Program-made: the position numbers and the translations under genes
In this document: positions 21,461 through 41,595 of the stretch, one piece after another
How positions within the stretch are numbered: position 1 is the stretch's first letter
Layout: each line of letters opens with the position of its first letter
Assembly: GCA_019057635.1 (NCBI GenBank)
Contig: DXJL01000156.1
Span: 32,001 to 96,000, forward strand
DNA length: 64,000 bases
Direction: 5' to 3'
Source of the DNA: Candidatus Heimdallarchaeota archaeon
Lineage (GTDB): Archaea; Asgardarchaeota; Heimdallarchaeia; Hodarchaeales; Hodarchaeaceae
The notes under the pieces: model-generated
Databases searched by the model: none
Told to the model about the DNA's origin: nothing
The model's input: only the letters and a program-made list of their open reading frames with translations

Positions 21461-22276
21461 TTACTTCCGTTTCTTCAATATTAAAGCATAATGGTGATGG
21501 ATATTGGAAACAAAACTATATGGATAGCCATACGGTCTCAAATTTTTCTGATTTTGTAACCAAATTCGTTCTCCCAAAAAGGAATACCATTTTGTTAGAC
21601 GTAGGGGGAGTTCGAAGGCGAGAGGTATCATTTCTCCCTTATCCCTGACATTTTGGATAAATACAATTAGATGGGCTTGGGGAAGTAATAGTTCATGAAT
21701 TTTAGTGAATATATCTACCAATTCATTTAGGAACTCTTCTTTTTCTTCTATCATTCCTAAATCAAGAGGATTTTGCCCATATTGGAGGTCGAGACCTTTT
21801 TCTAAGCGTTCTTGTTGATTATAATCTTTTTTTTTCTTTAATATTCGCCAATATGGAGGAGAGGTGATGCAAAGAGAAAAAGATTGTTTTTCTAAAGTGG
21901 GTAGAAGTATTCGGACATCACCTTCAAGAACAGGGAACTTTGTTCTAGATTTTGCAGTTTTAAAATACTTAGGATAAAGTTCTATACCGATACCCTTTCT
22001 TGCTGTGTTTTCACAGGCAACTAAAGTCGACCCTGTCCCCAAAAATGGATCTAGTACTATTTCACCAGGTTTCGTGAAAAATTCGATGAATTCTTCTATC
22101 ATAGAGGGAGGAAATGACGCAGGATGTAAATCAATCTCATGTGAAATGTCACTTGGTCTACCATCGGCTATAAACCAAGATTTTGTAAAACGAATCCACT
22201 CTTTCCCCGAGAGTGCGTTTAGCTTATTCCGAGGATCAATCTTTCCTGAATCTTTCATCACTATCCACTCTCTCAA
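21461..22276 (-). CDS. DNA methyltransferase (motif I before SPPY; probable m4C)
   Basis: HPA.FP, DPFLGTGST, ITSPPYW. Confidence 0.85.
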   Translation of the reverse strand: MREWIVMKDSGKIDPRNKLNALSGKEWIRFTKSWFIADGRPSDISHEIDLHPASFPPSMIEEFIEFFTKPGEIVLDPFLGTGSTLVACENTARKGIGIELYPKYFKTAKSRTKFPVLEGDVRILLPTLEKQSFSLCITSPPYWRILKKKKDYNQQERLEKGLDLQYGQNPLDLGMIEEKEEFLNELVDIFTKIHELLLPQAHLIVFIQNVRDKGEMIPLAFELPLRLTKWYSFLGERIWLQNQKNLRPYGYPYSFVSNIHHHYALILKKRK

Positions 22277-22326
22277 TCCATTTTTCTAAGTTAAAAATAT
22301 ATAATAAAAAGGTACGGTGAGGAATC

Positions 22327-22441
22327 ATGACTAAAATTGTCAGACAACTCTTGAAAACGAGTTCTGGACAGGATGAGTCACACATCCGCTATCCGGCAGG
22401 TTAGTAACACTAGAATGGATACTATCCGTTGGGACTACTTG
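22327..22441 (-). ncRNA. Predicted TnpB omegaRNA scaffold overlapping tnpB 3' end (guide about 22307-22326)
   Basis: GGAUG/CAUCC stem whose loop GUGACU can pair with terminal AGUCAU (pseudoknot). 34 nt are identical to 41269-41302. Confidence 0.75.
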
Positions 22442-23611
22442 GGAGTCTGTAGGATAACGTTGAAGAATATTCCGAGCCGCGTTATAATCGGCATTCAGAT
22501 GAACCCCGCACCTCTGACAACAAAAGGAACCTCGCGATGTTCGATTCCGCTTATCTACATGGCCACACTTACTACATTGTTGGGAGGTATACGCTTCGTC
22601 TACCCGTACTACGGTCATTCCAACAAGTTTAGCCTTGTATTCAAGCATTTGAACCAATTGGGAGAAGGGAAGTTGAATAAACGACTGATTTATCCGTTTT
22701 CCTAAGTTGCAGTGCTGTTTCCATCCCGCATTATAACCAATGACTAAGGTCTTTATCTTCTGCTCTAAACAGTAGTTGATTATTCGACGGGAGATTTGAT
22801 GGAAGATATCGTGGAGCTTATTAATCCGTCTACGATGTAGGCGTTGTATACGACGAGTAGTATACTGATGATTACAGATGGTGGCTAAGGATCGATAATG
22901 CGCAAGTTGCTTGTTATACCACTGATTAATGGTCTTAACTACCCCGCCTTTGACGAGTAAGCCGTCTGACGTAGTTACGAGATTGGTAAGACCGAGATCT
23001 ATTCCCATAGTTCGGGATGGAAAATCAGAGGAAGGAAATGGTTGCGCTTGTACTTCATAGAGTAATTCTACCACAAAGCGATCATAAAATGGCACTAACC
23101 GCGCCCCAACACATGCTTCCGCTGTCAATGGAAGAGAATCCAGGGGAAAGGTCGGAAACCCTCGTGCCATGAGATTTCGAGTAAATAGAATTTGGCTATT
23201 ACGGATTCGAACTCTGCGCCGGGGAAAGCTCAGCATATACATTCCGTTCTTGGGTTTATATCTAGGGGTTCGGGGGCGGGTTCGAAACCGGCCAGGATCC
23301 TTTTTCCAAACTTTCAGCGCGTTAAAAAAGCTGCGCCAAGTTTGTTCTACCTGTCGTAGGACCTGTTGGGGTAAATAGCTATCAGACATGTCTTTTAATG
23401 CTAGATACACTGGTTCGTGCTTGAGGCGATGATATAGGTTGGTATATTGGATCCATTTCCCTGTACTGAAAAATTCTTGTCGTACCTCATATGTCGCTCG
23501 ATTATAGAGATTTTTGGCACAGGTGCACAAATCGGTGAAAATTGGCCTAGGTTTCATTTGCATTCGGATAGCTAATTGGGGTTGAGGGTTTTTCTTGATA
23601 CGCATTCCCAT
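22340..23611 (-). CDS. tnpB: RNA-guided endonuclease TnpB with rearranged RuvC-II site
   Basis: AKNLYN, RuvC-I GIDLG, VIGYN..WKQ in place of the canonical Glu, VDEAYTSQQCSKCG, C..CG, NADYNAARNI. Confidence 0.95.
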   Translation of the reverse strand: MGMRIKKNPQPQLAIRMQMKPRPIFTDLCTCAKNLYNRATYEVRQEFFSTGKWIQYTNLYHRLKHEPVYLALKDMSDSYLPQQVLRQVEQTWRSFFNALKVWKKDPGRFRTRPRTPRYKPKNGMYMLSFPRRRVRIRNSQILFTRNLMARGFPTFPLDSLPLTAEACVGARLVPFYDRFVVELLYEVQAQPFPSSDFPSRTMGIDLGLTNLVTTSDGLLVKGGVVKTINQWYNKQLAHYRSLATICNHQYTTRRIQRLHRRRINKLHDIFHQISRRIINYCLEQKIKTLVIGYNAGWKQHCNLGKRINQSFIQLPFSQLVQMLEYKAKLVGMTVVRVDEAYTSQQCSKCGHVDKRNRTSRGSFCCQRCGVHLNADYNAARNILQRYPTDSQVVPTDSIHSSVTNLPDSGCVTHPVQNSFSRVV

Positions 23612-23630
23612 TCCTTTTTGGAATTTTCAC

Positions 23631-23645
23631 TCTTATAAACTTGAG
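23631..23645 (-). promoter_or_regulatory. Putative TATA box for tnpB
   Basis: TTTATAA (23633-23639, minus strand) about 25 nt upstream of ATG 23611, matching archaeal leaderless spacing. Confidence 0.5.
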
Positions 23646-23743
23646 ACAAAGAGAGAGCGGTGAAATTGATGAATGTGATGAAATTGAACCCTTTTTCTTC
23701 CCGACCAGTACTGATAAAAACTAGTGTTCTGACAAATTTGATC

Positions 23744-24391
23744 ATGCCTAAGATTCAGTGTATCATATTCGATGTGGATGGGACATTACTTGACAATACA
23801 AATTTTATAGTATCCCTATTTCAGGATACTGTAATAAAATATCTTGGACCAGCAAAAAGTATGTCTAGGAATGAAGTTTTGTCATTATGGGGTCCACCTG
23901 GAGATGAAATCTTTAGAAAAGTATTTCCACCCGAGGTAGTTGACGAAGCTTGGTCAGAATTTCTCATTAAGTATCGTAACACTCATACAAAAACGGGTTT
24001 TTTTTCTCGTGTGGAATTGAATGACTTTCGGAAATATGTTCAATATCTAGTAATTTTTACTGGTAAATCGCGTTATACTAATACCATCTCTTTGGAAGAA
24101 TTGGATATTACTGATTGTTTCGACCTTATCTATACTGGAAGTGATGTGGAAAATTCAAAACCCCATCCTGATGCACTGTTCCTTATATTAGAAGATTTAG
24201 ATCTGAATCCGGATAAAGTAATCTTTATTGGGGATAGCCATCTTGATATCATTGCAGGAAAGGCTGCAGGTATTCCAACCGCTGGGGCCGAATGGGGAGC
24301 AGTTGAGTTGGAAAAGCTCCTCCAAAGCAAGCCTGATCATGTTTTTAAGACCCCAAATGACTTTATCAAGTTCATAGAAAGCGCTTCATGA
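23744..24391 (+). CDS. HAD-superfamily hydrolase (phosphoglycolate phosphatase/PpaX-like)
   Basis: FDVDGTL, TGK, KPHP, IGDS..DI.AG. Start moved to ATG 23744 because the upstream extension lies inside the tnpB element. Confidence 0.9.
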   Translation: MPKIQCIIFDVDGTLLDNTNFIVSLFQDTVIKYLGPAKSMSRNEVLSLWGPPGDEIFRKVFPPEVVDEAWSEFLIKYRNTHTKTGFFSRVELNDFRKYVQYLVIFTGKSRYTNTISLEELDITDCFDLIYTGSDVENSKPHPDALFLILEDLDLNPDKVIFIGDSHLDIIAGKAAGIPTAGAEWGAVELEKLLQSKPDHVFKTPNDFIKFIESAS

Positions 24392-24406: not shown

Positions 24407-26551
24407 ATGACTAAAAAAATGATTGAAACCACTTTTCCAATCATTGAAATAAGTCAACTCGCCATACCTGAACGCAGCAGCTATAAACCTATTTATCAGA
24501 TTTCTAAATGGTTTGCCCGACGATCTTCGGCTATTTTTAGGGCCATTCTCCTTAGCTGTACTCTTAATTCATCAGAGAATTTCATGGACGAATTTTATAA
24601 TGCTAAGGATAGTTTCAAAGATATAACTATTCTTGATCCATTTATGGGAGGAGGAACAACAATTATAGAAGCTTTAAGGCTTGGTATGCAATGTATCGGA
24701 GTTGATATTAATCCAGTTGCATGGTTTATCACTAAAACTGAGAGTGCTATGGTCGATATAGAAGAACTTCAAGGTTTAATCACAAAATGTGAAGAAAACC
24801 TTGAAAATGATGTGAAAAAATGGTATAAAACCTCCTGTCCAGTATGTGAGAATCCCGCTGATATAATTTACACTCATTGGGTCAAATGCTTACCCTGTCC
24901 GACATGTAATTCACTCATCCCTATGTTTCGTAATTTTCTTGTCGGTTATTTGGCTAATGAGGCAATCCTTCTCTGTCCCTCATGTTATGCAGTATTTCCT
25001 TCAAATAAACCGATCACATCAGATAATAGATGTCCTGAATGTACTCAAAAATTCAAACCGAGTGCGGGTTTTAGAAAGGGTAGAAAATTGCTCGAATGTC
25101 CAGATTGTGGAAATTCTGTCAATATCTTAAACTCTATTCGTTCGATTAAGACTCCTCTCGCTTGCAAACCGTTTGCCATTGAAGGATATTGTTGTCACTG
25201 TGCAAATGAGAAAGATCCTGATTCAGACCTTGCAAAATCTAGATATAAATTTATCAAAAGAGTTTCACAAACAGACAGAGATCTTTATAAAAAGGCTGAA
25301 GATCACTGGAAGAATTATTCAGGCATCTTTCTTTGGCCAAAAGAAGATATCCCGATTGGCATGACAACAAAGGTTTTATTAAATCATAACTATACTAAAT
25401 GGGCTGACCTATTTACATACCGTCAATTATTAACTTTGAGTTTAATTTTAAACTTCATTAAAGACATTGAAGAAGAACATCTCCAAGAGATGTTTTTAGC
25501 GGCATTTCTAAACCTCTTAAATCACAACAATTCGTTTACAAGGTATTCTCCTAAAGGGCAAAAAGTCGAGGGGATATTTTCTCGCCATGATTTTCACCCT
25601 TTGTCTACATTTGCAGAAAATAATGTGTGGGGGACGAGATATGGACGTGGAACTTGGATCAAATGCCTCAAAAGATTACTAGAAGGGAAGAAGTACAACC
25701 TTGAACCCTATAATTTTACGTCTATAAATTCCAAAGAAAAGATCTCTAAGCGTCGAAGAATCGTATCTGGTAAAATTGATGGAAAAGTATACAATGGAGA
25801 AATTGAGCATTTTCCTGATGAAAAAAGTAATTTACTTCTTCTCTGTCAAGACTCTGAAAAACTTCCCTTGTTTACAAATGGCGTTGACCTTTTGATCTCT
25901 GATCCCCCGTATGCTGATAATGTAAATTATTCAGAACTATCTGATTTCTTATATGTTTGGATTCGATTAATATTACAGGAAAAATATCCCTTCTTTATTC
26001 CAGTTGAGACTCCAAAATTGGGAGAGGCAATTGAAACAAAAAATAGAGGTACTGATTACTATTCCAAACTCTTTAATATTTTTAGAAGCTGTAAGAAACA
26101 GCTCATCCCAGGTGGGTTGTTTGTATTTACATTTCATCATGGTAATCCTGATACTTGGTTTAAACTTGCTGAAGTAATTGAATCGTCTGGTTTTAGCGTG
26201 GTTAAAACGCATGTTTTGCAGAGTGAAGCCTTGAATGTTCTGAATATCCAAAATAAGAAAGCCGTGTCTTATGATTTAATTCTTGTCTGCCAGCAGAATC
26301 AACAAAAAAGGAAAAAACCCCATAATTTATCAGAATTTGTAGAACGGTTAAGCAAGAATTATGATAAGAAATTTACCTATTATACTGAGATAGGTCTCAC
26401 AATACATACAAATAATGTGATAGTTGTATTCTTTGGTGAATATTTGGAGCTTATTTCAAAGGTACAACCAGTAAACTGGTCAGACTCAATTGCTAAATCT
26501 GATCTAAGAAAAAGTTGTAAAGACCTTTACTCGAGTAAAATTATTGCCTGA
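24407..26551 (+). CDS. DUF1156-type adenine DNA methyltransferase with Zn-finger insertions
   Basis: KWFARR, DPFMGGGT, several CxxC pairs, SDPPY..N..Y.ELSDF, FTFHH. Confidence 0.88.
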   Translation: MTKKMIETTFPIIEISQLAIPERSSYKPIYQISKWFARRSSAIFRAILLSCTLNSSENFMDEFYNAKDSFKDITILDPFMGGGTTIIEALRLGMQCIGVDINPVAWFITKTESAMVDIEELQGLITKCEENLENDVKKWYKTSCPVCENPADIIYTHWVKCLPCPTCNSLIPMFRNFLVGYLANEAILLCPSCYAVFPSNKPITSDNRCPECTQKFKPSAGFRKGRKLLECPDCGNSVNILNSIRSIKTPLACKPFAIEGYCCHCANEKDPDSDLAKSRYKFIKRVSQTDRDLYKKAEDHWKNYSGIFLWPKEDIPIGMTTKVLLNHNYTKWADLFTYRQLLTLSLILNFIKDIEEEHLQEMFLAAFLNLLNHNNSFTRYSPKGQKVEGIFSRHDFHPLSTFAENNVWGTRYGRGTWIKCLKRLLEGKKYNLEPYNFTSINSKEKISKRRRIVSGKIDGKVYNGEIEHFPDEKSNLLLLCQDSEKLPLFTNGVDLLISDPPYADNVNYSELSDFLYVWIRLILQEKYPFFIPVETPKLGEAIETKNRGTDYYSKLFNIFRSCKKQLIPGGLFVFTFHHGNPDTWFKLAEVIESSGFSVVKTHVLQSEALNVLNIQNKKAVSYDLILVCQQNQQKRKKPHNLSEFVERLSKNYDKKFTYYTEIGLTIHTNNVIVVFFGEYLELISKVQPVNWSDSIAKSDLRKSCKDLYSSKIIA

Positions 26552-31831: not shown

Positions 31832-32155
31832 GAATATTATAATCTTAGATAAATAATTAAGTTTCTTAGTCAGGAATTCATTCACAGTAACATTTGAAGA
31901 CAAGATCAGTTTTTTAATTTGCCACAATCATTTTACTTAAGAATGCTAATGTTTAAGGAAGTACATAATTCATTTTATGGGTCCACCTGAATCGATTGTT
32001 GATTATTCTCGCGTAAGAGTAACAATAATGATTCACCTCTAGTACACAAAGCGGGAATGACTTGCCAGTCCAGCAAATCATTCCCAATTCTCCATAAATC
32101 CTTTTTATTATAAATTTAAAAATAAATTAGCTGGATTACACTTCAGGAAAATCAA

Positions 32156-41232: not shown

Positions 41233-41595
41233 CATGACTATATTTGTCAGACAACGCAGTAGAACCACGTTCTGGACAGGATGAGTCACACATCCGCTAT
41301 CCAGAAAAAACCAATTCAGCTGGTGAATTCGTTTTCGAGGGACTACTTGTTACAATCGGGTTGGCATTCTCTCTTGATTCCTCGAATTTCAAAAACTACT
41401 GGCCTTACCCCCCTCACCTTTGACGGGTAACTCGTCTAACGTAGTTACGAGGGAGGTACTCCAAAAATTTTGAGTACTTTTCTGTTCATCACCTCCGATT
41501 CTTAAGACTTCAAGGGGAGGAAGTCCTTTTAAGGCTTTCAGAGACAGAGTGAGGTGAAAATGAGCTTGTAAATTTGTCTGATAAATTGGATCATG
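41233..41595 (-). mobile_element. MITE-like deletion derivative of the tnpB element (355 bp between CATG repeats)
   Basis: Both ends match the 22326-23746 element (left end 18/20). Also a 34-nt identical omegaRNA core and a 31/35 match (41417-41451) to tnpB CDS 22947-22981. Confidence 0.85.
41234..41349 (-). ncRNA. Second omegaRNA scaffold within the MITE (guide about 41214-41233)
   Basis: Conserved CAAGUAGUCCC, GGAUG/CAUCC stem and AGUCAU end; the variable stem differs in sequence but still pairs. Confidence 0.7.

Follow-up and report, generated by a model that had tools for sequence, protein, structure and literature searches.

IS607-family insertion sequences, as described in PMC6188088 and PMC13565253, have no terminal inverted repeats or duplications, and carry subterminal inverted repeats at unequal distances together with short direct motifs. 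According to the account of Boocock and Rice (PMC4058570), their joined ends should form a crossover site in which two inverted half-sites lie around the overlap dinucleotide. Prokaryotic TnpBs inside elements with inverted ends have also been published already, and the DDE-linked TnpB elements described by Altae-Tran et al. in 2023 include solo tnpB copies mobilised in trans (PMC10691335). Here, we analyse a window of 64,000 nucleotides from Candidatus Heimdallarchaeota archaeon (positions 32001 to 96000 of contig DXJL01000156.1, assembly GCA_019057635.1). Positions 22326-23746 of this window are one copy of a small mobile element that carries just TnpB and its predicted guide RNA.

The family to which this copy belongs shares several features with the IS607 family (IS607, IS1535, ISC1904/ISC1926, CboIStron) and its tnpB-only derivatives. 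These are a 2-bp core present in target and junctions with no longer duplication, a target motif that extends on the left side only, a near-copy of that motif at the right end (RE) that differs at one upstream base, TnpB with a predicted omega-RNA at the RE, and closest TnpA-linked TnpB relatives that are IS607-type. It differs from IS607 in that the core is AT inside CATG and not GG, no copy carries tnpA, and the ends are true terminal inverted repeats of 19-24 bp, equidistant from the junction. The half-site symmetry expected by Boocock and Rice is shown in full by this Asgard family. With the DDE-linked TnpBs, as far as these are described in PMC10691335, it shares a TnpB 3' end near the transposon end and symmetric inverted ends; unlike them, it has no linked DDE gene and a 2-bp AT overlap. 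The haloarchaeal PATEs and IS1341-type elements described by Dyall-Smith et al. in 2011 (PMC3119063) likewise have many tnpB-only copies, gene-less derivatives down to tens of base pairs and mobility without a visible intact transposase. However, in that description they lack terminal inverted repeats and have near-terminal palindromes, whereas the present family has inverted repeats and a hairpin-free left end (LE). No Cas1 homologue lies next to tnpB here, unlike in the aCas1-linked Asgard TnpB elements. The first, sequence-only reading of the window had set the element apart from classical IS200/IS605 and IS607 elements, and we agree for IS200/IS605 and for GG-ended IS607, given the real terminal repeats, the hairpin-free LE and the AT inside CATG.

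In short, the junction chemistry looks IS607-like and the ends look DDE-like. The element is a non-autonomous insertion sequence carrying only tnpB and a predicted omega-RNA, and we see about an even chance that it moves by an IS607-like serine-recombinase crossover of 2 bp via a circular intermediate. It is not a new class of system. Our literature search found no description of this Asgard family, although the transposon-end alignments in the supplement of PMC10691335, which it did not cover, may bear on novelty.

The element, its copies and its empty sites

The window corresponds to C133:32001-96000 of the source genome (G000; 3.19 Mb, 214 contigs, 91.6% complete). We compared it with four relatives (G002, G020, G004 and G018) and with a genus set of 22 genomes, which are draft bins of 70-99% completeness. 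All features are oriented in the tnpB sense, with the LE at 23746 and the RE at 22326 (Table 1).

Table 1. Positions of the element, its parts and its gene-less derivative in the window.
Feature	Position	Strand	Description
Whole tnpB-only element	22326-23746	-	1421 bp counting both terminal CATG
LE terminal inverted repeat	23723-23746	-	Junction CATG at 23743-23746
RE terminal inverted repeat	22326-22349	-	Junction CATG at 22326-22329; contains near-palindrome TTGTCnGACAA
tnpB	22340-23611	-	423 aa, sole open reading frame of the element; RNA-guided RuvC nuclease by profile matches
Predicted omega-RNA scaffold	22330-22440	-	~110 nt; overlaps tnpB 3' end and RE repeat; two covarying hairpins
Predicted guide segment	22310-22325	-	Host flank of 16 nt immediately 3' of the RE, by analogy with IS605/IS607 TnpB systems
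Gene-less derivative, resembling PATEs and miniature inverted-repeat transposable elements	41233-41595	-	363 bp; RE-type terminus and omega-RNA scaffold at 41233; LE-type terminus at 41595

A tnpB element with terminal inverted repeats, a second locus with the same end architecture and no transposase in the window had been proposed from the sequence, and all three observations stand. The long element has CATG at both ends and repeats of 19-24 bp, the second locus is its gene-less derivative, and none of the transposase families that we searched lies even on the window's contig. The ends of the long copy are CATG (22326-22329) followed by ACTAAAATTGTCAGA and, on the other side, TCTGACAAATTTGAT followed by CATG (23743-23746); its arms are identical at 16 of 19 positions, CATG counted. 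The arms of the short copy agree at 14 of 19 positions (17 of 24), and a repeat search picked up these arms (22 nt, 77%) and not the terminal pair of the long copy.

Within G000, the element has 49 matches. These comprise five long copies at 76-81% identity, one of them 5'-truncated, and a single member of a 70% subfamily; the remaining matches are RE fragments and short copies. We located 15 paired short copies of ~360 bp in this genome, with nearest paralogues that are 79-92% identical. A 20-nt terminus pattern, allowing up to two mismatches, occurs 31 + 31 times in G000 versus 0 + 0 times for the reversed control. Collecting copies from the genome and its relatives, a check that the sequence-only reading had suggested, thus gave 62 termini in G000, and 12 of the 22 genus genomes are positive (35 + 32 occurrences in G002, 21 + 7 in G020). 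Read inward, the terminus consists of the tetranucleotide, then AyyAAATTTGTCnGAC, then AA(C). Among the 39 RE copies listed, similarity between copies ends immediately outside the terminal tetranucleotide. TnpB relatives at 67-82% identity occur exclusively in records titled Heimdallarchaeota or Hodarchaeota, and the next-best relatives, at 24-39% identity, are bacterial, mainly from Bacillota and Cyanobacteria. As far as searched, the family is confined to Heimdall/Hodarchaeota-type Asgard archaea.

Both window sites are empty in G002 (flanks 95-97% identical), each with a single tetranucleotide; a search of reads for empty sites had been suggested by the sequence-only reading. For the long copy, the G002 site reads ...AATCATGCCT... 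with one CATG, and G020, G004 and G018 likewise lack the element there. For the short copy, the site in G002:C23 reads ...CATTCACGCT..., with one tetranucleotide that carries a substitution. The reverse polymorphism also exists, since three G002 short copies (L146, L157 and L159) have single-CATG empty sites in G000. Furthermore, in a C35-type subfamily, three left ends located at contig ends are 98-100% identical, which indicates that the family moved recently. Taken together, the 62 termini against none for the reversed pattern, the insertions polymorphic in both directions and the near-identical subfamily copies show that the family is real and has moved. We also compared sequencing runs, based on assembled contigs. 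In run X1, probably the source sample, one contig joins 22323 to 23741 and skips 1417 bases, and other contigs cover the occupied junction. Because the empty contig differs at 6 of 106 bases on one side, it most likely represents a co-occurring strain and not an excision product.

The size classes of the family are 1.4 kb, ~360 bp, 146 bp and 33 bp. G002 has one 146-bp form and three 33-bp forms (C8:64499-64531, C35:1462-1494 and C50:11147-11179), and G000 has a single 33-bp form (C84:3071-3103). These 33-bp micro-elements are both terminal repeats fused at the common GTCnGAC and flanked by two tetranucleotides, and they resemble the terminal-only PATEs of Haloquadratum. Short copies retain a second conserved stretch of ~50 nt (41397-41451), homologous to the RuvC-I coding part of tnpB (22927-22981), ~650 nt from the RE. 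In four metagenome runs, the contig depth summed over this stretch is very high. Two copies in G000 are unusual. The long copy at C69:5445-6856 has a tnpB broken by a stop codon and an RE-type repeat (ACT...) at both ends, and the short copy at C22:23762-24660 (L130) is interrupted near its left end by an IS4/IS5-like DDE insertion sequence.

In the window, the long copy hit the CATG that holds the start codon of a HAD-hydrolase gene (23744 onward). The gene retains its ATG and is now separated from a Shine-Dalgarno-like GGTGAGG that lies beyond the RE; the spacing between the two in G002 is 4 nt. A DNA-methyltransferase-like open reading frame (ORF) with an SPPY motif (21461-22276, minus strand) lies directly beside the insertion site, and a second one with a DPPY motif (24407-26551, plus strand) lies past the HAD-hydrolase gene.

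Target and junctions

To define the junctions, we pooled termini from G000, from fetched G002 regions and from other Asgard loci; after removal of look-alike flanks, 62 left-type and 79 right-type termini remained. The outermost base departs from CATG in 10 of the 62 left-type and 12 of the 79 right-type termini (22 of 141 in total). Each of the three inner bases departs in 2 of 62 and in 1-4 of 79, respectively, and the inner position is A in only one left-type and two right-type termini. Three loci have a host site in G002 that is not CATG: TATG at C69 (TATG...CATG when occupied), TATG at C152, where the copy has an intact tnpB (occupied TATT...CATG), and CTTA at the short copy of C31 (occupied CATG...CATA). 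At all three, the odd outer base of the host is kept on its own side only. No clean junction answer came from G002 loci L145, L150, L152, L155, L160 and L161, which are occupied in both genomes, rearranged or diverged, or from C70, where the copy is present in G002 too.

In the tnpB sense, the target is a non-T base, then YATR (usually CATG), then often A. The outer Y and R come from the host, and the inner G (LE) and C (RE) from the element. It follows from the three empty-site comparisons, together with the way in which the outer base varies across termini, that target and both junctions share at most the central AT. The sequence-only reading had named CATG as the target, TCATGC as its consensus, and duplication of the 4-bp CATG by a DDE transposase, or else a site-specific recombinase, as the route of insertion. 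The element does usually land at CATG; however, its target is YATR with at most AT in common, and TCATGC is not general. Duplication of the whole CATG by a DDE enzyme would account for CATG at both ends of most copies and for its single occurrence in empty sites. Yet the two ends differ at all three non-CATG loci, and the outermost base varies without matching the inner one, an outer T not being mirrored by an inner A; we therefore hold this duplication to be extremely unlikely. A recombinase acting in trans, the other half of that proposal, fits best.

An overlap of AT fits a serine-recombinase crossover and a 2-bp duplication equally, and the two cannot be told apart from the sequence. In IS630/Tc1-mariner elements, the duplicated TA lies within CTAG-like sites; duplication of AT is not known from any DDE family. 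A cut-and-paste element moved in trans by a DDE transposase that duplicates only the central AT of YATR is nevertheless an alternative to be weighed, and one that we consider somewhat unlikely. The order of host Y, AT and element G at one end and element C, AT and host R at the other fits it just as well; the long, symmetric repeats of 19-24 bp sit at the very termini; short derivatives form a family; and six DDE-linked TnpB branches with inverted ends are described in PMC10691335. Against it, no DDE gene lies between or beside the ends in the families searched (DDE_3 and DDE_Tnp_1), and the strong asymmetry between LE and RE flanks described below would not be expected from a transpososome that is symmetric, unless it arises from TnpB selection.

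The junctions also bear on whether this is an IS200/IS605 element (IS1341 group), moved single-stranded by a Y1 HUH TnpA in trans, inserting 3' of CATG and ending in its own CATG. Elements with only tnpB are typical of that family, empty sites carry a single tetranucleotide, flank preference is asymmetric, and both C152 and C31 fit a left tetranucleotide from the host and a right one from the element. However, the last base of the RE, which should then be encoded by the element, varies as often (12 of 79) as the outer base of the LE (10 of 62), and at C69, admittedly a copy with odd ends, it is the element and not the host that supplies the base adjoining the left end. The element has real terminal inverted repeats, and an alignment of 12 left ends showed no conserved hairpin (consensus energy -0.14 kcal/mol). 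Y1_Tnp has no match in G000, despite its 91.6% completeness, and occurs in 2 of the 22 genus genomes, which include neither of the copy-rich G002 and G020 and in neither of which it adjoins this family. An IS200/IS605 origin of these insertions is, on balance, very unlikely.

The nuclease, its guide RNA and the proposed TAM

The protein belongs to the TnpB/OMEGA nucleases, with a RuvC-like nuclease and a zinc-ribbon TNB domain above curated cut-offs. It matches Pfam OrfB_IS605 (E 6.6e-21) and Cas12f1-like_TNB (E 4.1e-25), scores 235 bits against NCBIfam guided_TnpB (RNA-guided endonuclease TnpB family; cut-off 100), and is matched by solved Cas12f/TnpB chains at E values down to 3e-21. Alignment to these chains places RuvC-I at IDLG and RuvC-III at NADYNAARN. 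In RuvC-II, another residue stands in place of the canonical glutamate (VIGYNAGW); a shifted one lies in RVDEAYTSQQC, six residues before the zinc finger. Pro-Fanzors and Fanzors are defined, in the description of Yoon et al. (10.1101/2023.08.09.552727), by DPG in RuvC-I together with a C-terminally shifted RuvC-II glutamate. We considered pro-Fanzor identity and rejected it, because the shifted glutamate is present but RuvC-I reads DLG instead of DPG. Compared with Fanzor2 and the pro-Fanzors as described there, the element has the same glutamate position six residues before the zinc finger, is likewise non-autonomous and bounded by terminal inverted repeats, and likewise would use the repeat tip in its predicted guide-RNA scaffold; it differs in its DLG, its prokaryotic host and the absence of a longer target duplication. 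The Fanzor-like arrangement that had been read from the sequence is thus only loosely Fanzor-like: the shifted glutamate and the non-autonomous, repeat-bounded form bear it out, and the missing DPG does not.

The RE is predicted to encode a guide-RNA scaffold. In an alignment of 53 right ends of 128 nt each (A1), the two hairpins show numerous compensatory changes: 95.0% of cells pair compared with 84.8% after shuffling, and covariation is 0.303 compared with 0.139; none of 500 shuffles came as high, and all slid registers were far lower. The G-U pairs favour an RNA in the tnpB sense. A predicted closing helix, GUGACU/AGUCAU, would use the repeat tip and the CAU of CATG; it is invariant and hence unproven. 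An Rfam search of the whole window returned zero matches. In IS605/IS607 TnpB systems, the guide is taken from the flank 3' of the RE, as reported in 10.1101/2023.11.20.567912, and the predicted guide here begins exactly where similarity between copies ends.

The two flanks differ in composition. The base directly outside the LE tetranucleotide is A in 31 termini, C in 16, G in 11 and T in 4 (n = 62), a depletion of T relative to the genome's T content of 32% (p 1e-6), and three of the four T cases are degenerate or nested copies. On the other strand, the corresponding base outside the RE is T in 43 of 79 termini (LE versus RE, Fisher p 7e-10). If a symmetric enzyme acted on a palindromic site, no difference between the two sides would be expected. 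The RE reads ...AGT + CATG inside the element, such that occupied and vacated sites differ exactly where T is avoided. For the IS607-family CboIStron, 10.1101/2023.11.20.567912 reports TGGG both as TnpA target and as TnpB target-adjacent motif (TAM), with TCGG carried by the RE, from which its authors infer self/non-self discrimination. By analogy, we infer that the TAM of the present family may be non-T + CATG, and that the T in the RE would provide self/non-self discrimination.

The search for the mover and the reading of the family

The element has no transposase of its own. Pairing of termini in G000 and G002 for an autonomous partner returned only tnpB-sized, ~360-bp, 146-bp and 33-bp elements. 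No gene found in searches of G000 and the genus for Y1_Tnp, Resolvase, Cas1, DDE_3 and DDE_Tnp_1 carries these ends; the autonomous transposase that the sequence-only reading had suggested looking for was not found among the 22 genus genomes. DDE_3 had no matches, and the three DDE_Tnp_1 matches lack the terminus motif; these were the DDE families covered among those in Pfam. One of the candidates, the DDE_Tnp_1 match at C22, proved to be the separate insertion sequence that interrupts a short copy. Another, a terminus beside a serine recombinase in L054, was rejected since it lies inside a tnpB coding region. Among the ORFs of multi-copy DNA, there were only transporters, dehydrogenases and one IS4/IS5-like DDE protein, and no further transposase. 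Scans of public collections with the terminus pattern returned one uninformative metagenome contig and no viral contigs. Note that the absence of a mover gene is weak evidence, because all genomes are draft bins.

Serine recombinases of the IS607 type are present in the source genome. Two IS607-family TnpA genes (C54 and C56) are each followed by their own tnpB, and among transposase-linked relatives of the window TnpB, that of C54 is the closest (38% identity). The C54 TnpA scores 168.5 bits against NCBIfam 'IS607 family transposase' (cut-off 110). It belongs to a complete IS607-type element (C54:5738-7670, L031; TnpA 195 aa, TnpB 402 aa), whose borders are fixed by an empty site in G002:C14; its ends are asymmetric, and its junction overlap is 1-2 nt, T or TA, without GG. 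A nucleotide comparison of this element with other serine-recombinase loci gave no match. Among bacteria, a Resolvase-domain gene adjoins the tnpB of the best relative (35%), and a Y1 gene accompanies that of one cyanobacterial relative (30%). G000 also holds a second tnpB-only family of 1.66 kb (C104:14209-15871, C139:3638-5298 and C152:3625-5286), with a TnpB of 430-439 aa, GG ends and subterminal direct repeats, and with gene-less derivatives of 475 bp that are 90-93% identical (C82:48169-48653 and ~20 more). This GG-ended family is a textbook IS607-type contrast in the same genome.

The mover could also lie outside the three usual partners, as an Asgard Cas1-type integrase, another unrecognised enzyme or TnpB itself. 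To our knowledge, TnpB has never been shown to transpose DNA. This alternative gains from the fact that known partners were not found in the copy-richest genomes, although one subfamily is near-identical, and from the aCas1-linked, repeat-flanked TnpB loci described for Asgard archaea in PMC10691335. However, Cas1 exceeds the Pfam cut-off in only 3 of 21 relatives, none of them G000, G002 or G020 (a divergent aCas1 could escape the model), and the fetched Cas1 loci contain no TnpB relative and no terminus copy. This element lacks the motif that has been described downstream of aCas1-linked tnpB, and draft bins that are 70-99% complete can lose a high-copy autonomous element. We consider such a mover unlikely. 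A bolder version, which we regard as distinctly doubtful, is that in this lineage long inverted repeats, serving at once as the 3' part of the guide RNA, took the place of the usual asymmetric ends of IS605/IS607, the mover being none of the known TnpB partners but a new transposase or this TnpB itself, with its rearranged active site. A non-standard mover would explain copy-rich genomes without a partner gene.

We prefer the IS607-like reading, in which a transposase encoded elsewhere would act in trans, with the joined ends as its palindromic crossover site. Once the element has been excised, TnpB, guided by the omega-RNA, would recognise the vacated site as non-T + CATG + guide match and cut it, and cleavage would lead to homologous repair that restores the element; the T preceding CATG inside the RE would protect the occupied copy. 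A number of observations weigh against this reading. There is no serine transposase inside or beside any copy of the family, the 16 distinct Resolvase loci found in the genus all lack a convincing terminus, and G002 and G020, with 67 and 28 termini, respectively, show no IS607 TnpA. We extended the IS607 TnpA search to 83 genomes of the class and fetched 29 loci from 30 of ~77 matches; none of these has a convincing terminus, only weak look-alikes with five mismatches. Both IS607-type families mapped in G000 have different, asymmetric ends. The IS607 family is defined in PMC6188088 and PMC13565253 without terminal inverted repeats and as mostly GG-ended, and long symmetric terminal repeats are a hallmark of DDE elements. 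A palindromic AT core would give a serine recombinase no polarity, and a 2-bp AT duplication by an unknown DDE enzyme would give identical junctions. Single-base changes after insertion exist, as in a G002 RE that reads CAGG at a site that is CATG when empty, and in a G002 TCTG where G000 has TATG. Any single variant locus is thus weak evidence, and the argument depends on the pattern. The TAM itself is something that we infer, and its T also belongs to the predicted RNA helix.

The sole Resolvase match of G002 is an ordinary resolvase/invertase. It lies tail to tail with a 416-aa ORF that has a reverse-transcriptase-like YADD motif (C2:5629-7439, L045), which may point to a retron or some other defence locus.

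Both Cas12 and the eukaryotic Fanzors descend from TnpB. How it passed from hairpin-ended or asymmetric bacterial elements to eukaryotic transposons bounded by terminal inverted repeats is an open question. The family described here belongs to the archaeal group closest to eukaryotes, and it brings together junctions of IS607-like chemistry with true inverted ends, a catalytic glutamate that has shifted and a predicted guide RNA in which the repeat tip would take part. Its nuclease may be of practical value, being compact and having a likely CATG-type TAM. The family thus offers a testable system for asking whether a serine transposase can act on symmetric ends with an AT core, and whether a single base adjacent to CATG provides TnpB with self/non-self discrimination.

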